64,000 bases of DNA from an uncultured Alphaproteobacteria bacterium (GTDB lineage Bacteria; Pseudomonadota; Alphaproteobacteria; RF32; CAG-239), in contig CAKQPS010000001.1 of the NCBI GenBank assembly GCA_934270475.1, forward strand, positions 42,480 to 106,479, written 5' to 3'. The notes below the pieces were generated by a model. That model saw nothing but the letters and a program-made list of their open reading frames with translations, searched no databases and was not told the origin of the DNA. The translations under genes and the position numbers were made by a program. Positions 1 to 47,818 of the stretch are shown piece by piece; position 1 is the first letter of the stretch; the number at the start of each line of letters is the position of its first letter.

Positions 1-1167
1 GCTTATCTTTATGAATGTGAAAGCAAAGGCAAACCGGCAGTCGGCTATTTAGGTTCTGATCCAACCGGCGACAGCCTGCATGTCGGGCATATTGTGCCGT
101 TGATGATGATGCGCTGGTTTCAAAAATGTGGTCACAAACCATTGACTTTAGTCGGCGGAGCCACCGCCCGTATCGGCGACCCTTCGGGCAAAGACAAGCT
201 GCGTCCGTTTTTAGATGAAGAAACTTTGGCGCACAATATCGAGGGCTTGAAAAAGTCATTCCGCAAGTTTTTGAAATTCGGCGACGGAGCCAATGACGCA
301 GTTATGGTTGATAACTGGGATTGGTTTAAAGATGTTAACTATTTGGCATTTTTACGCGATATCGGAACTTGCTATTCGGTTAACCGCATGCTGACTATGG
401 AGAGCGTTAAAAGCCGTTTGGAACGCGAACAGCCGATGTCGTTTTTGGAATTTAACTATATGCTTTTGCAAGGCTACGACTTTTGTCAGCTGCTACAAAA
501 ATATAACTGCCGCGCGCAAATCGCCGGCGCCGACCAATGGGGAAATATCACTTCCGGCACAGAACTGGGACGCCGCCGCTATGATACAGAGCTATTTGGT
601 TTTACCAGTCCGATTTTGACTGACTCTTCAGGAAAGAAAATGGGCAAATCCGAAGGCAATGCGGTTTGGATTAACGATGAAAAATTGCCTTCATACGACT
701 ACTATCAATATTTCCGCAATATCGGCGATGCCGAAGTCGGCAAATGCTTGCGCGTGTTTACGGATTTACCGATGGACGAAGTACGCCGTTTGGAACAGCT
801 GAAAGACAAAGAAATTAACGAAGCTAAAAAGATTTTGGCATTTGAAGCCACCAAAATTTGCCGCGGTTTAGATGAAGCACAAAAAGCACAGGAAACAGCC
901 GTTAAAACCTTTGAGCAAGGCGCTGCTGGCGGTGATTTGCCAACCTTGAATGCCGATTTAAATGCTGGAATCGGCGTTTTAGACGCTTTCTTGCAAATCG
1001 GTTTTGTTGCCAGCAAAGGCGAAGCCCGCCGCTTGATTAAGCAAGCAGGCTTAAAAATCAACGACAAACCGATAACCGATGAAAACTATGTCATTACATC
1101 TGCCGATGTAGTTGACGGAGCTGTCAAAATTTCTCAAGGCAAAAAGAAATTCGGTTTAATCAAGTAA
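1..1167 (+). CDS. tyrS: Tyrosyl-tRNA synthetase, 5'-truncated at the window edge
   Basis: Frame 1 from position 1 reads ...GSDPTGDSLHVGH (HIGH motif) continuous with the listed ORF; KMGKS (KMSKS) motif present; C-terminal S4-like domain. Confidence 0.9.
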   Translation, partial: AYLYECESKGKPAVGYLGSDPTGDSLHVGHIVPLMMMRWFQKCGHKPLTLVGGATARIGDPSGKDKLRPFLDEETLAHNIEGLKKSFRKFLKFGDGANDAVMVDNWDWFKDVNYLAFLRDIGTCYSVNRMLTMESVKSRLEREQPMSFLEFNYMLLQGYDFCQLLQKYNCRAQIAGADQWGNITSGTELGRRRYDTELFGFTSPILTDSSGKKMGKSEGNAVWINDEKLPSYDYYQYFRNIGDAEVGKCLRVFTDLPMDEVRRLEQLKDKEINEAKKILAFEATKICRGLDEAQKAQETAVKTFEQGAAGGDLPTLNADLNAGIGVLDAFLQIGFVASKGEARRLIKQAGLKINDKPITDENYVITSADVVDGAVKISQGKKKFGLIK

Positions 1168-5899: not shown

Positions 5900-6838
5900 C
5901 TATAATGCCTCATTTATAAAATCTTGAACATCTTTTTTAGATTCAGCAACTTTATAAACGTATGTTGTTGTTCGCCCCACACGATTTGAAGCTGTATAAT
6001 TCTTTTCCAACGCTGCATTCTGCAACTCTTTTATTAAAGACTTGCTGTTGCAGGTAATCTCTTTGCTTTCGCTGGAAAATTTCAGGCAAAGTTTAACCTC
6101 TGATGTAACTTTGTCGGAAAAATGTATTTCTATCTGTTTATACTTTTCACCGTTTCCGCAATTTTCCCAATCAAAATAGCAAGCATAAAAAGCGCCTTTC
6201 GGATTATGCACCCACACAATATTAAAATCGTGCCCGTCCAGTGTGGAACTTAAATAACTAAACCATTTTTCGGCGCACCAAGTTTTTATTTCATTATCAT
6301 CACAATTTTTTATCTGCCCTTCTATTTTATCCAGCCTGTTATAATAACTTTCAAAAATTAAATCACATTTACTGTTATCTTTCAGCAATTCTAACATATC
6401 TTTACGCCGCAAAGAACAACAATCACTTTGATGTAACACACTTTCATCAGGCGTTTTATAATCACGCACATAATCCATTGTTTTTAAATAGCATACTTTA
6501 ATCTCTTGCCCTGAATACAATTTGTCATTTTTCAAAGCCTCAACATATCTTGCAATCTGATTATCATGCTCGTTTGTATATGTTTTATCTTCAATAATTA
6601 AAAGATGAGAGTTTGTAACAACTAAAACATCAATATTTAAATATTGCTTCTTTATTTCACAAATTTCTTCATCTTTTGCAATTCTGCATTTTTCCAAGAA
6701 AGAGTGAGCGATGCTAAATTGCTGCGGATATTTATCTTTATATGTTTTTATACCAAAAATCAGCATATAGCAAAGAAAGGCATCTTGTGACAATTCATTT
6801 GTGGCATAGTCAAAAATATTAGGCTGTTCAATATTCAT
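5900..6838 (-). CDS. Hypothetical protein with a PD-(D/E)XK nuclease-like core and a Cys-rich C-terminal half
   Basis: NIDVLVV...LLIIEDKTY gives a D...E-D-K arrangement typical of the restriction-endonuclease-like fold; no family assigned; AT-rich flanks. Confidence 0.35.
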   Translation of the reverse strand: MNIEQPNIFDYATNELSQDAFLCYMLIFGIKTYKDKYPQQFSIAHSFLEKCRIAKDEEICEIKKQYLNIDVLVVTNSHLLIIEDKTYTNEHDNQIARYVEALKNDKLYSGQEIKVCYLKTMDYVRDYKTPDESVLHQSDCCSLRRKDMLELLKDNSKCDLIFESYYNRLDKIEGQIKNCDDNEIKTWCAEKWFSYLSSTLDGHDFNIVWVHNPKGAFYACYFDWENCGNGEKYKQIEIHFSDKVTSEVKLCLKFSSESKEITCNSKSLIKELQNAALEKNYTASNRVGRTTTYVYKVAESKKDVQDFINEAL

Positions 6839-7088
6839 AGTTTTATTCTCTCATAAAAAAAATCATTATTTGCCGATAGTTATCAGGACGCTGCTCTTAT
6901 AAAGTTCAAATTCGATGATAACGTAACTATAAATTAAAGGCAATTTATTATTAAAGCTATTAAGAGTTTATTTAGTACAAATTATAACCATCTAAAACTT
7001 TCAAAAAATTAAGCAAAGAAGATTGTTTTTTTACCGACAAATGAGAAACACCGCAAACGCGCTGTGTGCAACGATTTGAAAAAAACAC

Positions 7089-7117
7089 TTGATTTCTGTA
7101 TTTTTATATTATATAAG
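7089..7117 (+). promoter_or_regulatory. Putative sigma-70 promoter for tRNA-Trp (TTGATT, 17-nt spacer, TATAAG)
   Basis: -35/-10-like hexamers with 17-nt spacing ending about 15 nt before the mature tRNA 5' end. Confidence 0.3.
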
Positions 7118-7132
7118 ACTTAAAGATTTTAT

Positions 7133-7208
7133 AGGGGTATAGCTCAGTTGGTAGAGCATCGGTCTCCAAAACCGAGTGTCGTGAGTTCGAATCTTACTGC
7201 CCCTGCCA
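7133..7208 (+). tRNA. trnW: tRNA-Trp (anticodon CCA)
   Basis: Cloverleaf is readable: acceptor AGGGGTA/TGCCCCT, D-arm GCTC-AGTTGGTAG-AGC, anticodon loop CT-CCA-AA, T-arm GTGAG-TTCGAAT-CTTAC, 3' CCA encoded. Confidence 0.9.
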
Positions 7209-22323: not shown

Positions 22324-23058
22324 ATGAAAAAACAAAGTGAAATTGAAAAATTTTCTGAAAATATTAAAAAGTTAATCAACTATTTTAAAAGCGAAGAATT
22401 ATCAGATGAGAAATTTAATGAGCTCCTCGTACGCAGAAATAAAATAAATTTAAGCAGCATTGAGCAACTTTTAAACAAATTGGAAACAACAAATAATCCG
22501 GAGACTAAAGATTTAATTAAACTAAGTCGCTTAGATAGAAAAGCCGAATATTATAAAGATATTTTGGATAATCCGAAGATGTTTCAGCAAAAAAAACGCT
22601 TCCGCGATTTTTCACACAAAATTGCCGTATTGAAAAACTCTTTTAAAAGAAAACACCCCTATATTTATAAAATTGCTGCCGTGGTCGCTAAAACTGTTTC
22701 TTTTACGGTCGGCGCCATAGGTTCTATGTTTATGGCTGGCGCATCTCCGGAAATTGCCTCGGCTCAAACCGGTAGAAGCGGAGCAGAAAATGCTTATGAA
22801 GCTGAAAGAATCAAACTCAAGTACAAGCTGGATAGAAAAGGGAACAGCCGTTCCGAAGCATCAGAACCATCGGAAAAAAATTCATCTTTGAAAGAAATAT
22901 TGTCGCAAGACAGTGCAAATCATCATAGCTTAAATCGTATCAAAACTAAATTAAATAGCAAACCACTACAGGAAGACGTCCAGAAGCCGCAAATCAGCGA
23001 AAAAACAAAAAATCCGACGCAGAATACTCATATTTCAAGAGGTACACGAGAGATATAG
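22324..23058 (+). CDS. Hypothetical Lys/Ser-rich protein with one central hydrophobic segment
   Basis: 244-aa ORF with a 210-bp AT-rich upstream region; no recognisable domain. Confidence 0.45.
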   Translation: MKKQSEIEKFSENIKKLINYFKSEELSDEKFNELLVRRNKINLSSIEQLLNKLETTNNPETKDLIKLSRLDRKAEYYKDILDNPKMFQQKKRFRDFSHKIAVLKNSFKRKHPYIYKIAAVVAKTVSFTVGAIGSMFMAGASPEIASAQTGRSGAENAYEAERIKLKYKLDRKGNSRSEASEPSEKNSSLKEILSQDSANHHSLNRIKTKLNSKPLQEDVQKPQISEKTKNPTQNTHISRGTREI

Positions 23059-28986: not shown

Positions 28987-29967
28987 ATGCAGATGAAAAG
29001 GCTTTTGTTTTATATTTTATTTTTGCTGACGGCAGCGGCGCAAAGCTGTTTTGCCCAACATATGGTGCAAAAAGAAAGCTATTTGAAAGACGATGTGTCT
29101 GTTATCGGCTTGCCGGATTATCCGCCTTTTTCCTATTATGAATTAGACAATCGCTCAAACTCTATTTATTACAGCGCATTTTTGAAACCTTTACAGGATA
29201 TTGCGCAAAGAAATGAATTTAAACTAAAAATCAGCTATTTTATGGGTATTCCGACACTTGAAAATGTGATTTTGGATATCAGAAGCGGAAAATCCCAGTT
29301 TTTTTTAGGCGCTTATTCCAATACTAAAATGTTTACCGGCATAGAATTAGTGTATCCGGCGGTAGTTTCCAACCCTATTCACGTTATCACGCTGCCGGAA
29401 ACGCAGGAAAAAATAAAATCTGCCAAAGACCTGACTAACCTTAAAGGAGTTATCAGCAAAACAGAATATCTGAGCGATTTTGTTTTACGTAAAATTAAAC
29501 CGCTTAAACTGACTTATCTTGAATCTCCTTACGATACTTATGAAAAATTATTCACCGGCGAGGCTGACTATATTATCGGCGGTTTGTATTATAACCGCAT
29601 AATGGCAAGCCGCTACGGCATTGAGCAATATCTGTCATATTCCACAAAACCGCTGTTCAAAATTCCGGTTTTTGTTGCCTTGTCAAAATTAACGCCGCAA
29701 ATGTCTCTGTATGAAAAAATATTAACTCAAGAATTTAATAAACCGGATTTCGGCAATGCCGTAAAAAAAGAAATTTTACGCATGGTAGAAGAGGAAATTA
29801 CTAAAAATCAAGGTATTGTGCCGCCGGCTTTTGCCAGCCATATTGTGCCTGCTGCCGCCGATACAGAACTACCGGTTACCGATGCTCCAGGGACAAACAA
29901 CGGCGGGAAAATTGTGGAGCAGCAACAAAAAGAAAAATCTATTGATGAAGTGCTTGATGGAATTTAA
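28987..29967 (+). CDS. Periplasmic solute-binding protein (family 3-like), signal peptide
   Basis: Signal peptide MKRLLFYILFLLTAAAQSCFA; SBP-like bilobal size. Confidence 0.45.
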   Translation: MQMKRLLFYILFLLTAAAQSCFAQHMVQKESYLKDDVSVIGLPDYPPFSYYELDNRSNSIYYSAFLKPLQDIAQRNEFKLKISYFMGIPTLENVILDIRSGKSQFFLGAYSNTKMFTGIELVYPAVVSNPIHVITLPETQEKIKSAKDLTNLKGVISKTEYLSDFVLRKIKPLKLTYLESPYDTYEKLFTGEADYIIGGLYYNRIMASRYGIEQYLSYSTKPLFKIPVFVALSKLTPQMSLYEKILTQEFNKPDFGNAVKKEILRMVEEEITKNQGIVPPAFASHIVPAAADTELPVTDAPGTNNGGKIVEQQQKEKSIDEVLDGI

Positions 29968-38773: not shown

Positions 38774-38874
38774 TTTTAGCCTTTGTTAAGTATCTTTAAG
38801 TTATATTGTATAATTAAATGGTCTTGCCGCTAAATGCAAGTAAAGATTCTGCAAATATTCGGGAGTGTAAAAAC

Positions 38875-39888
38875 ATGGCAAACAGCGATGTGATGGAAGA
38901 TGATGACTTTGAAAAACTGTTAAACAGCTTTATAAATGATTCTTTGGAAGAAGAATCGGCTGAAAAAGCTTCGTCTATGCCGGCGGAAGAAAAAATCAGC
39001 CAACTTAAAAACAATCAAAACAATGACGGCACTGCCGAAGATGATGATGAATTGCAAGAAGATGAGATTGACTATGCTTCTGCTTTGAGTCCAGAAGACC
39101 AAGCAGTTAATAACTTTATTTCGCAAAACGATATGGACGACGCCTTAGTTTCTTCTTTGCAAGACGCCAAAGCCGAAGCTCAAAATGCCCAAGAAGAACC
39201 GACGCTCGGCAATGATGAATCTGAATTGGCGCAAGCCTTTATGAATTATTACAACTCCGTAAATAAACTGTCGTTGACTAAACTAAACACTCCGTATATG
39301 TGCACGTTTTCGGTTGAAGACCTTTACCCGAACTATAAACCAAGCGTGGGACATATTCTTACTAGCGATATTGCCGCCGGCTGGGTATTGCTGTGCAAAA
39401 TGTTTCCTGAACAAGTAGGAACATTTCCGCTTAACTCCAGCGATGAAGAATTTTTGAGCTTTGCAGAAAAACTGACTGACAATGATTTGCAGCTGGCAGT
39501 TATTTCATATGTTGAAATTTTAATAGACATAGAAGGGTGTGAATTAAGCTATCAAGCTAAGTTTTTAAAATATCAGGAAAAACACATCAAGCGTCTTATG
39601 TATGAAGAATATATGAACCGCAAAGAAAGACAGCGCAAATTTACCGAAGCTTTAGCGGCAAAAAATTTTCCGGTAGACGCAGACAGGCTGATAAGCAATT
39701 ATTTTAGAGTGGCGCAAAAAGACGTTGACGGCGCGTTTAAGGCGTTAACCACCAATCCAGCGATTTTTGCCCCGATTGACTTCAGCAAAATAAAACCGCG
39801 CTGGTTTGGCTTGGTAAAAGTATCACCAAAGGACGGTATCCGCATAAATTTGGAAATCGGTAACTTTTTGAAAAGACTCAAAGTTTAG
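38875..39888 (+). CDS. Hypothetical acidic protein (operon gene A)
   Basis: ATG with upstream GGAG; D/E-rich N-terminal ~150 aa then a globular C-terminal domain; no known motif. Confidence 0.5.
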   Translation: MANSDVMEDDDFEKLLNSFINDSLEEESAEKASSMPAEEKISQLKNNQNNDGTAEDDDELQEDEIDYASALSPEDQAVNNFISQNDMDDALVSSLQDAKAEAQNAQEEPTLGNDESELAQAFMNYYNSVNKLSLTKLNTPYMCTFSVEDLYPNYKPSVGHILTSDIAAGWVLLCKMFPEQVGTFPLNSSDEEFLSFAEKLTDNDLQLAVISYVEILIDIEGCELSYQAKFLKYQEKHIKRLMYEEYMNRKERQRKFTEALAAKNFPVDADRLISNYFRVAQKDVDGAFKALTTNPAIFAPIDFSKIKPRWFGLVKVSPKDGIRINLEIGNFLKRLKV

Positions 39889-39960
39889 CAATAAATAATA
39901 ATAGACAAAAATCTTTTTTTATGGTATATTGGCAAGAAAGTAGTAAATGGAGTAACAACA

Positions 39961-41928
39961 ATGGCTGATAACAAGCAAGAAGAAATGCAATTGAAAAAAG
40001 CGGCTAATCTCTTTTTAAAGGCAGTAAAAGAAAACGCCTCCGACAAAAAATTTTCGGAATTGCTGGCTAAAAATCCCAAATTGTTAGTATCTAAGGAATT
40101 TACGGATAAATTGTTTCCGAATCAAATGACAAAACAGAAAGGATTTGCTTCTTTAGACAAAATGATGATGAACATCAGCAAAGTAAAAGAACTTGCCGAC
40201 AAAGGCATTATCAGTTCGGAACAACTTGAAACATTTATGGAATCCAGCCATTCGCAAACCGGTGAGACTTTTGCCACCGCTGCCGCTCAGCAAGCTGAAG
40301 CCGCCAAAGAAAAAGCAAATCATGAAAATCCTTCTTTTTCGGAAGAAGGAAAAAACAAGCTGTCGGATAATTTGCAAAACTATGAAGACTGTTTGGAAAA
40401 AATGGAAGAACTCGGCGTACCGATGGATTTGCCAAACCGCGCCGGAAAAAATGCGAAAGATATATATTCTAAAAACGCCGAAGACAGCAAAGATTTCGCA
40501 AATGCTCTGCAGGTCAGCATTGAAGACAACAGCAATGAAAAAGGAAATTTGGAAATAGACGGCGAAGCGCTGAAAGTTAAGGTTGAAGAAAAACCGGTTG
40601 AAGAAAAACCGGTTAAAGTAAATGTTGCGGAAGAATCTAACAAAAAAGAAGAAGATGAAGTCGACGCCGATGTTACAAAAGCTCCGAAAGATGATTCCGC
40701 TAAAAGCGGCAATTCTGACATCGATCTTGTAAAAGAACAAGACATTATTGATTATATGTATAACCAATGGTTCTTAGCATCTGTGAATTGGACAATTCGC
40801 AAAGGAGTCCGCTGGTCTGATAACAAAGTGGACAACCTGTGCGAAAAATTTGATAAAAAATGCATGGAAAACAGCAAAAATAAAGAAGAAAAACAGAAAA
40901 ACAGAGTCAGTGAATTTCAAAAAGGCGGACAATATCTGCTGACCGACGGTGCTAAAAAATTAAGAGACGGTTACTCGGTTGATAAAGATAAAAGACTGGC
41001 AATGTGGAAAGAAGTTGCCGCTAACTTAGGCAAAGACCCGCAGACTTGGACGGTTTTGAATCCGAAAAACGACAAAACTAAGCAATTTATCTGCATGATA
41101 AATACCGAATACAAGCAAGACCCGCAGCATTGCACCAACAAAGTTAAAGGCATTATTCAAAATTATGATAAAAATCAAGATGAAGAAACTCAGCTTTATG
41201 CTTTAGCCGTTGAGCTGGCTGCCACCGAAATAGCCTATGAAGGAATGGGCAGCGGACGTGCCAAACGCGGAGTGCAATTCCAATATAACTTGGGCGATTT
41301 AACCGCTAAAGAGATGGATACAAAGCTAAAAAAGAGAACTATAGAAAAAACCAAAGAATTGCTGGAAAACCTTGAAAAATTACAATTATTTGCAGAACTA
41401 AAAGCAGCTCAAGAAGGCATAACTGATAAAGAAAAGATTGAAAAAGCAAAAGGCGATTTTATCAAAGTATATCTTGATACTTTATCCGATAAAACCATTG
41501 ACTGTCAGAAAAAACTGCTGAAAGATTTGAATGAAGAAAACTTCAGCCGCGCCAAAACCGGTGTTATAAAAGACTTATTCAATAAAGGACTGTCTAAAGA
41601 TTCTATTGAGAGCTATTCGGCTATAAAAAAGCTTAAAAACATTGATAACTTAGGCTATTCTGTACTTGTTAAAGGGCACAAGGACGAAATTAAAGACTTG
41701 CGGGCTGATGCAGTAGAGCGCCTTACAAAATCTCCGCTAGATGAGTTAAATGACAAGTTCAATAGAAAAATGCAACAAGAGACCACTTCTCAGGAAGAGC
41801 ATAATTCCCGCGAAACTAAATTCAGACAGCTGAAAAAAGAAATACTGAGAGGTGAAAATTCCGGTAAAATATTGAACGACAAAAATAATGGCTTAAACAA
41901 TCTTTGGAAAACATCGCAAGGACGCTGA
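39961..41928 (+). CDS. Hypothetical Lys/Glu-rich coiled-coil protein, 655 aa (operon gene B)
   Basis: GGAG RBS; long ORF with a strong codon periodicity; internal EEKPVEEKPV repeat. Confidence 0.55.
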   Translation: MADNKQEEMQLKKAANLFLKAVKENASDKKFSELLAKNPKLLVSKEFTDKLFPNQMTKQKGFASLDKMMMNISKVKELADKGIISSEQLETFMESSHSQTGETFATAAAQQAEAAKEKANHENPSFSEEGKNKLSDNLQNYEDCLEKMEELGVPMDLPNRAGKNAKDIYSKNAEDSKDFANALQVSIEDNSNEKGNLEIDGEALKVKVEEKPVEEKPVKVNVAEESNKKEEDEVDADVTKAPKDDSAKSGNSDIDLVKEQDIIDYMYNQWFLASVNWTIRKGVRWSDNKVDNLCEKFDKKCMENSKNKEEKQKNRVSEFQKGGQYLLTDGAKKLRDGYSVDKDKRLAMWKEVAANLGKDPQTWTVLNPKNDKTKQFICMINTEYKQDPQHCTNKVKGIIQNYDKNQDEETQLYALAVELAATEIAYEGMGSGRAKRGVQFQYNLGDLTAKEMDTKLKKRTIEKTKELLENLEKLQLFAELKAAQEGITDKEKIEKAKGDFIKVYLDTLSDKTIDCQKKLLKDLNEENFSRAKTGVIKDLFNKGLSKDSIESYSAIKKLKNIDNLGYSVLVKGHKDEIKDLRADAVERLTKSPLDELNDKFNRKMQQETTSQEEHNSRETKFRQLKKEILRGENSGKILNDKNNGLNNLWKTSQGR

Positions 41929-41933
41929 AAAAA

Positions 41934-42422
41934 ATGATAGAAAAGACTCTTCACTGCATTTGTGTTTTAGCCGCCGGAGCATTGTTCAGCGCTTTGCTGC
42001 TGCTAATCTACCAGCTTGCCTTTTTTTACTGCTATCAAATAGACATTATGGCTCCGCAAACCTATGCCTCTATCCGCAATTATTGGGATGACGGCGGAGT
42101 TTTGAAAGCCGGCGATTTATTTATGCTGATTGGGATTTTTTCATATTTTCCATTGATATTTTTTGTTTGGCGCAAGTTAATTAAATATCAATATATGAAC
42201 CTGATTACCAAGCCTGTTAACTGGCTGGCAAATTTGGGAATGGACAAATACAGCGGCGGTATGCCGGAAGTAAATATTAAAAACCTGAAAATTGAGGAGA
42301 GAAAAACTATAGAACAACTGGTGCAAGAGCGTATAGAGCTGGAAAATAAAAAGAATCCTAAAACCGATACAGCGCAATTTAGAAAAGAAATTGTTGAAAA
42401 GATAGAAAATGACATCAATTAA
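41934..42422 (+). CDS. Hypothetical small membrane protein (operon gene C)
   Basis: Two hydrophobic segments then a charged coiled-coil tail; starts 5 nt after the gene B stop (alternative start 41904 overlaps B). Confidence 0.45.
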   Translation: MIEKTLHCICVLAAGALFSALLLLIYQLAFFYCYQIDIMAPQTYASIRNYWDDGGVLKAGDLFMLIGIFSYFPLIFFVWRKLIKYQYMNLITKPVNWLANLGMDKYSGGMPEVNIKNLKIEERKTIEQLVQERIELENKKNPKTDTAQFRKEIVEKIENDIN

Positions 42423-42476
42423 CACTCTCTTTATAAATTCGTTTTATACTGACAAGAAAAATATGGAGTAAAGCGG

Positions 42477-43985
42477 GTGAAATCCTTAATTGTCTTTGCA
42501 AGAATAATTATCGTGGGGTGCCTATGGAGCATTGTCTTCGTAGAGGGCATTCGCGTAATTATGCTCTGCAACTGGCACTTTGATATTTTTTGGCCTGATC
42601 ACTGGCGCCAAGCCTATGCGCTGTGGAAAGCGGGCTGGGTAATTCGCGCGCCTAAAGAATGGGCTTTTGTGATTATTCTCGTGACATTTTTCCCAATGCT
42701 TATCACTGGTTGGTGGACGCTGTGCATGGTGGCGTGGGAACGCATTATATATGACATTATAATGTCGCCGATTATGCTTTACCGCCGCTTGATTAAAGCT
42801 CCTATCAATGTGATTAAAACCAACAATAAATACGGCGTGGTAAAGAAAAAATCATATAAACAGGTACGCCCTGCCGGTGTTGGTTTCAGAATGCCTATTT
42901 CTGATTATTCCGACAATAAATCGGCAGCTCCGGTAACGGCTGGCGTGGGCGGCAACGCGGTTTTGCCATCGCAAGTCCGTCAAGTTCCAACAGCCCCGAG
43001 CGCCTCGGCGCCAGCGGCGTCTAAAACAGCAAGAAAAACCGACATTCCGTCAACTATCGACCATGCTTTATTCAAATTTGATGATGATGACGATGATTTT
43101 GATTTGGATATAGATTCTTTTGAAAAAGCCGATATCTTAAAGAAAAAAGAACCGGCAAAGCCAAAAAAACCTCTGTTTGATGATGATGACGATGAAGATG
43201 ACGAGGATTTCCAGCCGCGCAAAAATAAACGCGATGACGACAGCGGCTCTAAGCGTTCGGCGAAAAAACCTGTTTTTGATGATGACGATGATGAAGATGA
43301 CGAGGATTTCCAGCCGCGCAGCAACAATCGCCGCAACAACAAAAACGACCGCAATTCTGACAATGGCGGCAAAGACCCGCGGCAGAAAAATAACAAGCAA
43401 AATCGTACAGATTCCAAAGCGGACAAGTCTAACCGCGGCAATAAACAAAACAACAGCTCTGATGATTCTGATGAGGCTAATACTCCGCACAGTCCGGTTT
43501 ATGACAGCCTGCAGCAAAAAGGCTACGACGTTATCGCCGGAGTTAATGTCAACAACACTGTGATTGACTTTGTCGGCGTTTCCGAAACAGAAATCTGTTT
43601 GTGTTTGGTAGACAAGGAAAACGGCGACTGGTTGGCTGATGAAGAATTGTTTAACGGCGAAGAGCCTCTGTGGTTTTCAGAAAACAGCCATAGAATTTCA
43701 CCGGTACGCAAATTAGATGTTGCGCGCAATGTGATTCGTGATAAACTTGCCGAAGAAGACTTTGAGCAAGAAGTTAAATCTTATGTGGTGGTGCAAATGG
43801 CAAACATTATCAATGCCGACGATATGTTTGAAGTTTGGAATAAAATGGATATTGAAGTAACTAGAATCAACCGCGGCGCACCGAAAGAAATTCATCTGTT
43901 TTCAAAGTCGCTTGATGAAGCCGACGGACAAATCGACCACAAAGAACTCAACCGTTTGCGCAAAGTTTTAAAAAACATTAAATAG
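42477..43985 (+). CDS. Hypothetical inner-membrane protein with D/E-rich tandem repeats and a C-terminal globular domain (operon gene D), translationally coupled to the T4CP
   Basis: GTG start with GGAG RBS; ~110-aa N-terminal multi-TM region, low-complexity linker with the repeat FDDDDDEDDEDFQPR, then a ~170-aa C-terminal domain; stop lies 8 nt before the next start. Confidence 0.6.
   Translation: MKSLIVFARIIIVGCLWSIVFVEGIRVIMLCNWHFDIFWPDHWRQAYALWKAGWVIRAPKEWAFVIILVTFFPMLITGWWTLCMVAWERIIYDIIMSPIMLYRRLIKAPINVIKTNNKYGVVKKKSYKQVRPAGVGFRMPISDYSDNKSAAPVTAGVGGNAVLPSQVRQVPTAPSASAPAASKTARKTDIPSTIDHALFKFDDDDDDFDLDIDSFEKADILKKKEPAKPKKPLFDDDDDEDDEDFQPRKNKRDDDSGSKRSAKKPVFDDDDDEDDEDFQPRSNNRRNNKNDRNSDNGGKDPRQKNNKQNRTDSKADKSNRGNKQNNSSDDSDEANTPHSPVYDSLQQKGYDVIAGVNVNNTVIDFVGVSETEICLCLVDKENGDWLADEELFNGEEPLWFSENSHRISPVRKLDVARNVIRDKLAEEDFEQEVKSYVVVQMANIINADDMFEVWNKMDIEVTRINRGAPKEIHLFSKSLDEADGQIDHKELNRLRKVLKNIK
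43163..43332 (+). repeat. In-frame tandem DNA repeat (~99-bp unit, 2 copies plus a partial upstream copy) encoding K-P-x-FDDDDDEDDEDFQPR
   Basis: AAAAAACCTsTkTTTGATGATGAyGAyGATGAAGATGACGAGGATTTCCAGCCGCGCA is seen twice. Confidence 0.6.
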
Positions 43986-43993
43986 AGGTTAAA

Positions 43994-46207
43994 ATGGCAT
44001 TAAAAGAACGTGGTGAAGAATGGAAAGAATATGACAGCGCCGTCCGCTGGATGATGATTACTTTTCTGATTTGTTTGGGACTGACAATTTTTCTGTTTGT
44101 TTTTGCCCTGCCCTTGTCATATTTGGTTGGACACGGTATTTCAAAAGCATCTTTTGAAATGATACAAAAGTTTTTGGGTTTGATTGTAGAAAAACCAAGC
44201 CATTTGTGGGCAATGTATGCCAAATGGTTCAGGCAGCTTATCCGCTATCACGGCGCTTTTTCACTTAGTTTGTGGCTGCCGATTCTGCCGTTTATTACTC
44301 TGCCGGTGGGTTTGATTGTCGGCTCTTTGCTCAGCCCGTATAAATTCCAAGTTAATACTCAAGGTTCGGCACGAATCGCAGAACTGCGTGACATTAACAA
44401 AATGGCGCTGCTGGGATTTGACGGCTTTTGTCAGGTTGTGGGCAAATTTAAAGGGCGTTTCTTAATGCTGAAAGAAACCTTATCCACTTTGTGCTGTGCT
44501 CCTCCGGGTACTGGTAAAACAGCCGGCGTGGTTATTCCGACAATTTTTAACTCCGATAAATTAAGCATTATCGTAAACGACCCGAAGCCGGAACTTTGCT
44601 ATTCCACTACCGGTGCCCGCGCTAAGGTTGGTCCCGTGTTTGTAATTAACTGGGGTGCCGAAGACAATCCGAGCGAAGGTATTTATTACCCAAGCTGGAA
44701 TCCGCTGTCGCCGAACTCGATGCCTGATGCTGGTCCGGACCGCGATATGTATGTGGACTCTATGTGCAACATTTTGGTGGAAGACCCTAAAGGCGGCACT
44801 GACCCGCACTGGTCAAATACCGGTCGTGCCGCACTAACCGGCTTTATTAACTTTGTGGCGTCTAAATGTGACCGCGCCCGCGCCAACGATTATTTTATCG
44901 GGCGAATTTATGAGGGCAAGCTGGACGCTAAAGATAAAGAAGTGCTGGAAGGCTACTATATGGAAATGCGCGATCCAGCGGCTCCGCGCGCTATTCAAAA
45001 CCTAAAAAACGGCACGTTAACCATGGAAAACTATCTGCCAATCGGCACTTGGAACTTGCTGCCGGCACGTTGGATGGGACGCGAAGCCTGCATTGCCATG
45101 ATTATGGAATGGATTACTGAAGCGCAAATCAACGCCGCCCAAGAAATTCAACGCCGTATGGACGAAGGCGACCAAATGGCTGCCATGGCCGACCCAACGC
45201 ATGATATGCTGGAAGAAGCCGTGAAAGAAGCCCGCAACTTTGGTTATTCGCAGCGCTGTATCACTGAATTAAGCTCACTCAGCAGTATGCCGGATAAAGA
45301 GCGCGGCTCCGTGCTTTCCACTGCTTTTGCCGGTATCGGCTGTTTCAAAAACCAAGCGGTAAAAGCCCGCACCAGCTTTTCGGATATTCAATTCAAAGAC
45401 CTGCGCGGTATGAAAGACCCTGTCACCGGCGAATGGAAGCCGATTTCGGTATATCTTTCCGTAAACCAAGTAGACGCACGAGCTTTGGGCGTTATCAGCA
45501 GTACATTTATTGAATTGATGTCGTCATACCTGATTTCTAACCCGCCTAACCATGTTAATAAAACAGACGGCAAAATGGGACCTTTCCCAGCATTGTTCAT
45601 CTTGGACGAGTTTCCGCAAATGCCGAAAATGAAAGCTATTATCGACGGACCTGCCGTAGGTCGTGGTCAAAAAGTGTCTTATTTGCTGATTGGACAAGAC
45701 TTGGGGCAAATCTCCGGCAAATATGGTAAAGATGACCTTGAAACGGTTATTTCCACCACTGCCTGCAAGATTATTCTTTCTCAAAACAACGAGGTTACAG
45801 CGCAGCGTTTTTCCAAGATGATTGGCAACAAAACCGTGCAAGTTTCGTCTTTTAGCCGTACAGAAGGCAGCTTGGGCAAAGACTTTAACCCGCTCGCTAA
45901 AAATGTAAATTATCAAATGCAAGGCGTGCCGGTTATCAGTTCAACTCAATTATTGAGCTTGCCTATGCTTAAACAAGTTGTTTTGATGCAAAGCTACATT
46001 GACCGTCCGATTATGGCGGATTCGCCTCGTTGGTATCTAGACCCGAAAATGCGTAAGTTGGCTAAAATACCGCCTTGCCCGAATGTTCCGGATTGGATTG
46101 TGGCACAGCGTGAAGATATCAACGACGATATGCTGGCAAAACTCGGAATTGAATATGAGGCTGACGAAGATAACGACAATTTTGAGGTCGACAGTCCGCA
46201 AGCCTAA
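43994..46207 (+). CDS. Type IV secretion coupling protein (VirD4/TraG/DotL family, T4CP)
   Basis: Two N-terminal TM helices; Walker A CCAPPGTGKTAG (~44498-44527), IVNDPKPEL (the DPKGE-type motif of the TraG/VirD4 family), Walker B ALFILDEFPQM (~45590-45615), acidic C-terminal tail EADEDNDNFEVD. Confidence 0.8.
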   Translation: MALKERGEEWKEYDSAVRWMMITFLICLGLTIFLFVFALPLSYLVGHGISKASFEMIQKFLGLIVEKPSHLWAMYAKWFRQLIRYHGAFSLSLWLPILPFITLPVGLIVGSLLSPYKFQVNTQGSARIAELRDINKMALLGFDGFCQVVGKFKGRFLMLKETLSTLCCAPPGTGKTAGVVIPTIFNSDKLSIIVNDPKPELCYSTTGARAKVGPVFVINWGAEDNPSEGIYYPSWNPLSPNSMPDAGPDRDMYVDSMCNILVEDPKGGTDPHWSNTGRAALTGFINFVASKCDRARANDYFIGRIYEGKLDAKDKEVLEGYYMEMRDPAAPRAIQNLKNGTLTMENYLPIGTWNLLPARWMGREACIAMIMEWITEAQINAAQEIQRRMDEGDQMAAMADPTHDMLEEAVKEARNFGYSQRCITELSSLSSMPDKERGSVLSTAFAGIGCFKNQAVKARTSFSDIQFKDLRGMKDPVTGEWKPISVYLSVNQVDARALGVISSTFIELMSSYLISNPPNHVNKTDGKMGPFPALFILDEFPQMPKMKAIIDGPAVGRGQKVSYLLIGQDLGQISGKYGKDDLETVISTTACKIILSQNNEVTAQRFSKMIGNKTVQVSSFSRTEGSLGKDFNPLAKNVNYQMQGVPVISSTQLLSLPMLKQVVLMQSYIDRPIMADSPRWYLDPKMRKLAKIPPCPNVPDWIVAQREDINDDMLAKLGIEYEADEDNDNFEVDSPQA

Positions 46208-46228
46208 CGTATTTAAATATTTGCCAAA

Positions 46229-46273
46229 CCGTCGTCTTTGTTGGCGGCGGTTTTTGCTTTTTTATGTATTTTG
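46229..46273 (+). terminator. Rho-independent terminator after the T4CP gene
   Basis: ACCGTCGTC-tttgtt-GGCGGCGGT stem (with G-U pairs) followed by TTTTTGCTTTTTTAT. Confidence 0.6.
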
Positions 46274-46395
46274 AAAAAAATTGCACAAAGAACCTGCCAA
46301 CAAATTGAAAATTGGCAAATGAACGGTTAAATTTAGATTGTTTAACGCACGCAAAATATTAGCTCAAAAATTAAATTTTTTAGGGGAGAATAATA

Positions 46396-46850
46396 TGAAT
46401 AAATTTTTATTGACCACCGTACTTTCTACTGTTATCGCCTTTTCGGCTTATTCCAACGCCTTTGCCAAAGCAGCTGCTAATCCGGCAGAACCAATGCAGC
46501 AAGCCGAGAAAATGCCAAAACCGCATAAAAAAATGCACAAGCTTCCCAAACCGAAAAAATTAGATAAATTCTTAAATCTGACCGATGAGCAAAAAGCTAA
46601 GGTCAAGGAAATCCGCGAGCAAAGCCGAAAGGAAATTGAACCGCTAAAGAAAGAAAAGGAAGCTATCAATGAAAAAATTGATAAAATCCATGAAGCGGAT
46701 ATGAAAAAATTTGAAGAGATTTTGACACCGGAGCAAAAGGCTAAATGGGAAGCCAGCAAAAAGCATCACGAAAAAAAATTTAAAGGCGGTGAAAAACACA
46801 AACTTCCGCCGCGCGATTTTAAGGACTTTTCAAAACACAGCAAAAACTAG
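46396..46850 (+). CDS. Spy/CpxP-family periplasmic protein (LTxxQ motif)
   Basis: GGGGAG RBS then the ATG of MNKFLLTTVLSTVIAFSAYSNAFA (signal peptide); two LTxxQ motifs (LTDEQKAK, LTPEQKAKW). Confidence 0.6.
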
Positions 46851-46857
46851 ACAAACT

Positions 46858-46900
46858 TACCGCTGGATTTTTATTTGTCCGGCGGTTTTCTCTTTTTTTA
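46858..46900. terminator. Hairpin plus T-run terminator between convergent genes
   Basis: CCGCTGGA-tttttatttg-TCCGGCGG followed by TTTTCTCTTTTTTTA. Confidence 0.55.
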
Positions 46901-47818
46901 TTTCTTATCCTTTTTATTTTTAGCCGATTTTGCGGCTTTTGTTTTTTTAGCCGATTTTTTGACTCTGGAGCCATTATTTTTTGCTGTCGGCAATAGCGTA
47001 TCATTTTTTAACGAATCCATGGCTGTATTCTCATCTAACGGACTCGGATTTTCCGGTGAAAAAATCTCCAGCTGCGACTGAATTACCATCATAATCATCA
47101 CGACATACAAACAAATAATATAATTTGCGGCAAAATCAACCACAATAGTTGTTACGAAATAAAAATTCTTATATAAAAATATTTTCAATAAAATATTCAA
47201 CTGAAAAGAGATAAAGTTGATTAAGAGCAAAATTACACCATATGTAAAAACAATGCTGAAACTTTTATCGGTTGTTTGCTTCCATATAAGTTTTAGCGAT
47301 GGAAATTTTCCATTTGCCATATAACTACCGACAGCGCCTGCCATACGCACAATTAAAAACGGTACCCAGCAGCAGGCAAATGCTATCAGAAAATAAATAA
47401 ACTCAATTTTCCAATTTGGATTCGGCTCTTTTGTAACCATAGCAACAACCATTACTAATGAAAAAATCAGCAGCAGCAAAACCAAAAACAATAAACCGAT
47501 TTTTTTCAGGCGTCCGCGTTCCAAACTGATTATATTTTTTAGAGAAAATTTTTTGCCGTTAAATTCTATATCGTAAAAATCTACAAAAAAGGCAAAAATA
47601 ACGCATAGCATTAAAAATTTATCGACAAAGAACATTGCCGAAGTTAAATTTGGACACCACCATGCTGGATTCATCATATCACAGGAATAATTTTGCCCAA
47701 AAGCTAAAGAAATTACCGTCATAATCAAAGCATAAAAAGCTATAGCTTTATAGTGCTCAAAACTGTTTTGAAATAAAGACAACGTTTTCCAAACCAATTT
47801 AGGGAATGTAAATTTCAT
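46898..47818 (-). CDS. Hypothetical polytopic membrane protein with a Lys-rich C-terminal tail
   Basis: 306 aa, at least 6 hydrophobic segments; ATG 1 nt after the dnaE stop (co-transcribed). Confidence 0.5.
   Translation of the reverse strand: MKFTFPKLVWKTLSLFQNSFEHYKAIAFYALIMTVISLAFGQNYSCDMMNPAWWCPNLTSAMFFVDKFLMLCVIFAFFVDFYDIEFNGKKFSLKNIISLERGRLKKIGLLFLVLLLLIFSLVMVVAMVTKEPNPNWKIEFIYFLIAFACCWVPFLIVRMAGAVGSYMANGKFPSLKLIWKQTTDKSFSIVFTYGVILLLINFISFQLNILLKIFLYKNFYFVTTIVVDFAANYIICLYVVMIMMVIQSQLEIFSPENPSPLDENTAMDSLKNDTLLPTAKNNGSRVKKSAKKTKAAKSAKNKKDKK

Follow-up and report, generated by a model that had tools for sequence, protein, structure and literature searches.

The five genes analyzed here, named A to E, form an operon in a window of 64,000 nucleotides (64 kb) from contig CAKQPS010000001.1 of an uncultured alphaproteobacterium. 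The last gene, E, encodes a VirD4-type coupling ATPase. That E is a coupling protein is known biology; what appears undescribed is the subfamily to which it belongs, an orphan group with core-gene behavior and a diagnostic insertion, and the partner set of paralogous membrane anchors with a tethered restriction-fold domain. As judged from sequence comparison, E represents a VirD4 subfamily marked by a conserved 57-residue insertion and by its own N-terminal membrane domain. Our tentatively favored reading is that E, as a membrane ATPase which derives from VirD4 but is not linked to virB genes, acts on DNA in concert with the tethered nuclease-fold protein encoded by D.

The initial annotation had identified E as a coupling protein from its motifs, its two N-terminal hydrophobic segments and its acidic tail, and all of these were found. 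The protein matched the Pfam family T4SS-DNA_transf (PF02534) with 191.8 bits (cut-off 20.1), and additional matches were obtained to TraG-D_C (78.3 bits) and TrwB_AAD_bind (61 bits), so that the assignment held in the VirD4/TraG profile search. K175 in the Walker A motif was invariant in 33 family members, and the last 20 residues, with a median net charge of -9, were acidic in all orthologues. On the other hand, E scored under every NCBIfam equivalog cut-off (VirD4 PRK13897/PRK13850, IncP TraG, Ti TraG, F TraD and CD1115), the best scores being 140.9 bits for CD1115 (cut-off 250) and 117 bits for VirD4 PRK13897 (cut-off 728). A Protein Data Bank (PDB) search with the single E sequence gave nothing useful. 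When a profile of the E family was compared with solved structures, the Helicobacter pylori VirD4 homologue Cag5 was the best match (E-value 2e-13) and DotL was marginal (E-value 1.5e-3, 20 bits). Because the profile favors Cag5 over DotL, E was classified as VirD4-type and not DotL-type. The DotL/DotM flavor proposed at first was abandoned for this reason and because the soluble domain of D matches only the NERD/restriction-endonuclease fold. The literature search found no paper describing the family of E, and the named family members are all metagenome-assembled genomes (MAGs).

Relatives of E were searched for among 1.8 billion cluster representatives, and the neighborhoods of 8 insert-bearing and 5 insert-less cases were examined. 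Two types of relatives were found, namely proteins full-length colinear with E (29-55% identity) and other coupling proteins which align in two blocks. The closest two-block relative, P0366/P0543, is chromosomal and is encoded after virB4...virB8-virB9-virB10-virB11 in another uncultured alphaproteobacterium. E and this type IV secretion system (T4SS)-linked VirD4 (P0543) were 48-49% identical over residues 107-293 and 351-706, and the gap between the two aligned blocks was exactly residues 294-350 of E. The N-terminal membrane domain of E could not be aligned with that of P0543. By alignment, the insertion-holding segment of E falls on Cag5 residues ~210-309, where the nucleotide-binding domain is divided into two halves; in TrwB-like coupling proteins, an all-alpha, substrate-binding domain lies between these halves. 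In a joint alignment, the insertion was present in every colinear relative, with a length of 57-59 amino acids (aa) and 36-53% identity to that of E, and it was retained even where the ATPase core was only 27-30% identical. The two-block relatives, in contrast, had 1-12 aa at the site and no insertion.

Presence of the insertion went together with genomic context. All 8 insert-bearing lineages were orphans located among housekeeping genes, versus none of the 5 insert-less relatives, which lay directly after virB11 on chromosomes or plasmids. If the lineages are taken as independent, the probability of this 8-versus-5 split is ~1/1287. A single origin of the insert-bearing subfamily is likely. 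The virB4-virB11 set taken from the P0366 locus (L090) was compared by tblastn with 2.78 Mb of E-neighborhood loci, and no match was obtained. Chromosomal virB4/virB8/virB9/virB10/virB11/virD4 clusters with housekeeping flanks were also observed in other uncultured Alphaproteobacteria (L172:1-12040 and L176:6937-19838). In L172, dnaE lies 4 kb downstream of virD4, recalling the proximity of E and dnaE in the window, and the virB cluster of L176 encodes a secretin beside virB9.

These neighborhoods bear on the main alternative reading, in which the operon would serve a dispersed T4SS as its platform for substrate recruitment. E would then couple to a virB channel encoded elsewhere in the chromosome, C and D would be DotM/TrbA-type partners, A an adaptor, and B (perhaps also A) effectors. 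We regard this as possible, and hold it with reservation. The motor of E is as similar to the chromosomal VirD4 behind virB8-virB11 as orthologues would be, given that DnaE is 44% identical between the window organism and the P0366/P0543 organism, and the Walker motifs of E are intact, its acidic tail being of the kind to which adaptors bind in other coupling proteins. However, no virB gene was found in the 64-kb window, within +/-10 kb in >170 related loci (a survey which covers E neighborhoods only), or beside any of the 8 insert-bearing lineages, and the position of all five insert-less relatives behind virB11 also speaks against it. The N-terminal membrane domain of coupling proteins contacts the channel in known systems, and it is this domain of E which does not align with that of the closest T4SS-linked VirD4. 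Moreover, D has a predicted nuclease fold and does not appear to be DotM-like.

The inheritance of the operon was then compared with that of its housekeeping neighbors. Many contigs from gut metagenomes encode the same or almost the same proteins. When one genome per species was scanned, 200 stretches encoding relatives were obtained, and the 80 best, none of them under 74% identity, were analyzed. Save for a few mis-binned contigs, these best 80 came from human-gut, rumen and chicken MAGs with Alphaproteobacteria in the title; a metagenome scan with a 14-sequence alignment returned the same clade only, in human-gut and rumen samples, and no new outgroup contexts. The order rpoH-rluD / A-B-C-D-E was kept in ~70 of the 80 species-level loci, and the downstream flank varied. 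Across the clade, identity to the window was 74-99% for E, 76-98% for dnaE and 58-98% for rpoH, compared with 34-95% for A, 32-95% for D and 20-97% for C; B was often undetectable by tblastn and showed <25% identity. Pairwise dN/dS values between the window and four relatives were 0.03-0.04 for E and 0.02-0.03 for rpoH and dnaE. The values for the other genes were 0.05-0.09 (A), 0.05-0.10 (D), 0.09-0.18 (C) and 0.22-0.28 (B). The low values indicate that all five are real genes under purifying selection, and by this measure E is as constrained as DnaE and RpoH, which belong to the core machinery of replication and transcription. In this clade of uncultured Alphaproteobacteria from gut and rumen, the A-E operon is functional and belongs to the vertically inherited core. 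The earlier view of the module as long-resident was borne out.

The same data were used to weigh a decayed integrative and conjugative element (ICE) or a conjugative-plasmid remnant, which the initial annotation had also offered. Decay would leave a coupling protein without channel or relaxase, and a xerD-like integrase gene lies 22 kb from the operon. This gene is located beside dciA, distant from any tRNA or repeat boundary, and was read as the chromosomal xerD. We consider such a remnant extremely improbable, and it was ruled out because of the selection on the five genes (dN/dS 0.03-0.28), the host-like GC content and the absence of a tRNA, att or integrase boundary; neither a tRNA nor an integrase nor a repeat boundary flanks the operon. 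The gene order, kept between housekeeping genes in ~70 of the 80 species genomes, also argues against it. The closest plasmid homologue of E was merely 33% identical, and gene D had no plasmid match at all. The GC content of the operon is 0.38-0.47, inside the range of the window, as had been claimed.

C and D are the putative membrane partners of E. Four of the five products were said at first to belong to no family, and this stood for A and B; D, in contrast, has a predicted nuclease fold and C resembles the D anchor. In hhalign, C matched D residues 1-135 with a probability of 98.8% and an E-value of 1e-16, and the C hidden Markov model (HMM) also matched the D orthologue of L085, a 55%-identical outgroup. 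BLASTP of C versus D gave no match, so that the likeness is visible only with profiles. The membrane domain of C is a paralogue of the N-terminal anchor of D. In D, the stretch after the second hydrophobic segment is strongly basic, and from the positive-inside rule the remainder of the protein is predicted to be cytoplasmic. KKP[LV]FDDDDDEDDEDFQPR is present twice in D. The C-terminal domain has an alpha-beta-beta-beta-alpha-beta restriction-endonuclease core fold of the PD-(D/E)xK type, and a precomputed match to Pfam NERD (PF08378) was present in four listed D orthologues. D364, D379 and K380 were at least 90% conserved and E381 was invariant among D orthologues, and catalytic competence of D is plausible. 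A single-sequence PDB search with D gave nothing useful, the D profile matched low-complexity tails only, and no sequence similarity to solved nucleases was detectable. D matched no Pfam or NCBIfam family besides the weak NERD match, and no DotM-specific comparison was made.

Searches of A-D against Pfam, NCBIfam, PADLOC and PHROGs gave nothing except the weak NERD match in D; A had no PDB sequence match either. An acidic-aromatic linear motif was common to A (DDDFEKLLNSFI) and D (DDDFDLDIDSFEK) and was confined to these two proteins (0/6850 shuffles). The C-terminal tails of A and D carry a net charge of ~+3, the background value being +1. For B, 42 orthologues were searched against Pfam, and not one had a family match. 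A 15-bp tandem repeat of 2.8 copies lies inside B (window 40581-40622) and encodes (V/K)EEKP repeats, which fits a fast low-complexity evolution of this gene. Such evolution (dN/dS ~0.25) is common in effectors and in that respect favors the dispersed T4SS. The A-B pair was observed twice in tandem at L079:2772-8224 (282 + 533 aa, a 134-aa C-like fragment, 282 + 533 aa), either as a true duplication or as an assembly artefact.

The partners of E were also compared among relatives. Distant clade members have two additional genes, a DUF6476 gene before A and a gene H, often found after E. The DUF6476 protein is small (~94 aa) and membrane-anchored, and its gene lies between rluD and A in L039:5260-5541 and 41 other loci; it is missing from the window's subclade. 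Gene H, absent from the window, encodes a protein with the pattern PENYNxHxKIPxxFGGx5NLxLIxxHPxHxxIH and no Pfam match. Its sole PDB profile match was the HNH DNase domain of pyocin AP41 (E-value 0.14), aligned exactly on the H motif, and H appears to be HNH-like, though the usual second His is replaced. In L085 the module has shrunk to orthologues of D, E and H. In four lineages at 31-41% identity, a cytoplasmic pentapeptide-repeat protein is encoded immediately upstream of E; we know of no description of such a pair of a pentapeptide-repeat protein and an orphan coupling protein. The pentapeptide fold mimics DNA (MfpA/Qnr). Three of the four pentapeptide-repeat proteins have a strongly basic tail, the charge of the final 20 residues being +4 to +9, and the Arg/Lys-rich ends of these neighbors recall VirB/D4 translocation signals, a further point for the dispersed T4SS. 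Pfam searches of the pooled neighbor genes matched only DUF6476 (the small upstream gene) and pentapeptide repeats, and no recognizable partner was present beside the E homologue in L084 and L175. The constant element is the insert-bearing ATPase, and the partners are lineage-specific; three of the four recognizable partner kinds are DNA-related (restriction-fold, HNH-like and DNA-mimicking pentapeptide). In L088 (positions 1-2444), ~8 kb upstream of the orphan coupling protein, there are a Cas9-like gene (RuvC_III, with a faint HNH match) and cas1, which are probably unrelated to the coupling protein.

Anti-plasmid or anti-phage defence was also considered, in which the membrane ATPase and the nuclease would intercept incoming DNA at the inner membrane. 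An ATPase, a PD-(D/E)xK nuclease fold and transmembrane (TM) proteins are combined in many defence systems, and the HNH-like gene of the relatives would suit this role. However, no PADLOC model matched A-E at E<=1. The operon occupies one fixed syntenic site beside rluD-rpoH in ~70 species and is not patchily distributed in islands, and E is constrained like DnaE, unlike defence genes. Defence is therefore an improbable explanation.

The correlation of insertion with orphan status, the non-alignable N-terminus and the DNA-related partners together lean to a system driven by a type IV coupling protein and unrelated to conjugation, which the initial annotation had listed beside a T4SS recruitment module; of these two the evidence leans to the former. 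According to our favored reading of a VirD4-derived ATPase which handles DNA, E would form a hexamer in the inner membrane, with the anchors of C and D packed against its divergent membrane domain. The long acidic linker of D would hold the nuclease-fold domain at the cytoplasmic mouth of E, where this domain may nick, cut or hold DNA, and E would then move the DNA at the inner membrane, with no linked virB channel involved. A may be an adaptor which competes with the D linker, through their common motif, for one docking site, the 57-residue insertion of E being the candidate site. B would be a rapidly evolving accessory protein or cargo.

Several points weigh against this model. The virB search was limited to E neighborhoods, and a virB channel elsewhere in the genome is possible. 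The identity between E and VirD4 (49%) is about that of DnaE (44%), and E could be the coupling protein of a dispersed T4SS. A rough neighbor-joining tree built on the ATPase core left the monophyly of the insert-bearing proteins unresolved. The NERD match of the window D was sub-threshold (16.5 bits versus 22.1), and its motif order is D...D-K-E, not the canonical D...ExK, although it could be a BamHI-like D...DxE variant. No outer-membrane route was identified for the DNA, and the fast evolution of B would fit a secreted effector as well. A broader proposal, which we consider doubtful, is that the insert-bearing VirD4s act as a stand-alone inner-membrane DNA translocase, freed from its channel and kept as a near-essential core gene in several lineages of uncultured Alphaproteobacteria, with DNA-related partners specific to each, namely the membrane-tethered restriction-fold protein here and pentapeptide-repeat DNA mimics or an HNH-like protein elsewhere. 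It would serve a housekeeping membrane DNA transaction, such as chromosomal DNA export, uptake or clearance.

The operon was compared with known systems. The coupling proteins of virB/virD4 (P-type) T4SSs, including those of L172, L176, the Sphingomonadales plasmids and Cag5, the best solved relative, belong to the same Pfam families as E and share with it the Walker A and B motifs, two N-terminal TM segments and the acidic C-terminal tail, in addition to the 48-49% identical motor. Unlike them, E carries the 57-aa insertion and a non-aligning N-terminal membrane domain, is not virB-adjacent in the loci examined, is a vertically inherited core gene (dN/dS 0.03-0.04) and falls under the NCBIfam equivalog cut-offs. 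DotL(IcmO)-DotM(IcmP)-DotN and IncI TrbC/TrbA resemble the operon in the idea of a coupling ATPase with an upstream membrane partner and soluble adaptors. The type IVB systems differ in that DotL matches E marginally, the soluble domain of D is nuclease-fold, and no dot/icm genes are present in the window. A functional analogy for the favored mechanism is TdtA of Thermus thermophilus (ICETh1), a hexameric membrane protein identified as a putative DNA translocase; DNA donation in this system needs the nucleases of its operon and involves no T4SS (PMC5365140). In both cases a short operon would combine a translocase with nuclease-type proteins; TdtA is encoded on a mobile element, whereas A-E is found at a fixed chromosomal locus. 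MOBC relaxases, related to restriction endonucleases, act beside coupling proteins, as stated in a passage of PMC6499999 citing Francia et al. (2013). D has the superfamily-level core fold and conserved acidic residues in common with NERD and other PD-(D/E)xK nucleases, including MOBC, but differs from NERD and MOBC in being anchored by two TM segments, in its ~230-residue disordered linker and in its motif D364...D379-K380-E381.

The layout proposed for the five-gene operon, with its gaps, GGAG-type ribosome-binding sites and terminator, was reproduced with the open reading frame (ORF) map, public gene calls and a hairpin scan (Table 1). All five genes are co-directional on the + strand. The ORF map allows starts at 38818 or 38875 for A and at 41904 or 41934 for C; public gene calls on contigs with identical proteins give 337, 655, 162, 502 and 737 aa for A to E. 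With the starts 38875 and 41934, the gaps A-B, B-C, C-D and D-E are 72, 5, 54 and 8 nt, and GGAG, AGGA or GAGG was found 6-11 nt 5' of every start. The rluD/A junction is kept in ~70 loci, and a promoter scan of the rluD-A intergenic region gave a signal no better than chance.

The absence of T4SS and relaxase genes from the 64 kb, and with it the orphan state of the coupling protein in the window, was confirmed, the gene content being housekeeping only. The core genes include three aminoacyl-tRNA synthetase genes, addAB, RNase PH and the xerD-like gene beside dciA, together with ATP synthase F0, tgt and an RND efflux system as well as rpoH, rluD, dnaE, parAB, gidAB, mnmE and typA. The single tRNA of the window is a Trp tRNA at 7133-7208. 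It adjoins a 312-aa ORF of the PDDEXK_4 nuclease family in the region 5900-7208, the lowest-GC kilobase (0.31), and this region may be a small foreign insertion. An LTxxQ (Spy/CpxP-like) gene at 46338-46850, past the terminator, lies outside the conserved module; its presence downstream of E, at variable distance, is limited to the nearest relatives, those with an E of at least 93% identity, so that the suggested envelope-stress link fell away. Four window ORFs of 244-645 aa had no Pfam match at E<=1e-5 (58286-60223, 22324-23058, 28987-29967 and 46898-47818). The last of these, 306 aa, is a predicted multi-pass membrane protein and adjoins dnaE in most relatives with dnaE in the locus.

Table 1. 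Features of the A-E operon (window coordinates) and of related loci (locus and coordinates in the locus).
Feature	Position (nt) or locus	Residues	Strand	Basis or context
Divergent intergenic region rluD (- strand)/gene A, presumed promoter region	38774..38874		.	ORF map
Gene A, 337 aa, acidic (pI 4.4), soluble	38875..39888		+	
A motif DDDFEKLLNSFI in disordered N-terminus	38899-38934	9-20	+	
A helical bundle		~110-260	+	pLDDT >85
Gene B, 655 aa, Lys/Glu-rich (15% Lys), no TM segment	39961..41928		+	
B sole conserved element DIIDYMYNQWFLASVNW, 17 residues	40741-40791	261-277	+	
Gene C, 162 aa, 2 TM segments and charged cytoplasmic tail	41934..42422		+	hydropathy, hhalign
Gene D, 502 aa, 2-TM anchor, disordered linker and C-terminal domain	42477..43985		+	
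D 2-TM anchor		1-~110	+	hydropathy; AF2 helices 2-30 and 59-106
D disordered acidic/basic linker		~113-330	+	
D invariant acidic-aromatic linker motif HALFKFDDDDDDFDLDIDSFEK	43062-43127	196-217	+	
D two D/E-rich repeats in linker	43164-43220 and 43263-43319		+	
D C-terminal domain, predicted restriction-endonuclease-like (NERD-like) fold	43494-43982	340-502	+	
Gene E, VirD4-type coupling ATPase, 737 aa	43994..46207		+	Pfam, profile search, hydropathy
E TM segments (2)		15-50 and 87-115	+	hydropathy
E Walker A APPGTGKTAG	44498-44527	169-178	+	
E NDPKPE motif		195-200	+	
E subfamily-specific 57-aa insertion, RARANDYF...NYLPI	44873-45043	294-350	+	
E Walker B FILDEF	45596-45613	535-540	+	
E acidic C-terminal tail	46094-46204		+	
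Intrinsic-terminator-like hairpin and T-run, operon end	46226..46263		+	11-bp stem with 6 GC pairs at 46226-46253
Insert-bearing orphan, window clade	window/L001			among housekeeping genes
Insert-bearing orphan, P0362	L084			among housekeeping genes
Insert-bearing orphan, P0361	L085			among housekeeping genes
Insert-bearing orphan, P0378	L086			among housekeeping genes
Insert-bearing orphan, P0369	L087			among housekeeping genes
Insert-bearing orphan, P0363	L088			among housekeeping genes
Insert-bearing orphan, P0408	L089			among housekeeping genes
Insert-bearing orphan, P0364	L175			among housekeeping genes
Insert-less relative, P0366	L090			directly after virB11
Insert-less relative, P0543	L172			directly after virB11
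Insert-less relative, P0371	L176			directly after virB11
Insert-less relative, Sphingosinicella plasmid	L173			directly after virB11
Insert-less relative, Erythrobacter plasmid	L174			directly after virB11
Gene H, ~200 aa	L039:12241-12864, L052:12277-12834, L076:12262-12861, L085:12265-12903, 14 more loci			directly downstream of E
Pentapeptide-repeat genes, 330-441 aa	L086:9006-9998, L087:8672-9997, L088:8772-10001, L089:8789-9979			immediately upstream of E

The only role in which coupling proteins are understood is that of gatekeeper to conjugation or effector secretion channels, and their genes normally accompany those of channels or relaxases. If the insert-bearing proteins function independently of a T4SS, they show that cells can co-opt a coupling ATPase for a function of their own, which would be a new role. 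The insertion would then be a sequence marker which separates orphan from conjugative proteins when mobilomes and ICEs are annotated by pipelines; lacking such a marker, these pipelines would score the insert-bearing proteins as conjugation genes. If the operon instead serves a dispersed T4SS, its products would form a recruitment complex of a new type, in which a membrane partner has a nuclease fold, and T4SS-dependent interactions would be indicated for gut Alphaproteobacteria about which little is known. The orphan subfamily spans deep lineages of the Alphaproteobacteria; none of these has been cultured, and many are abundant in the human gut and rumen.

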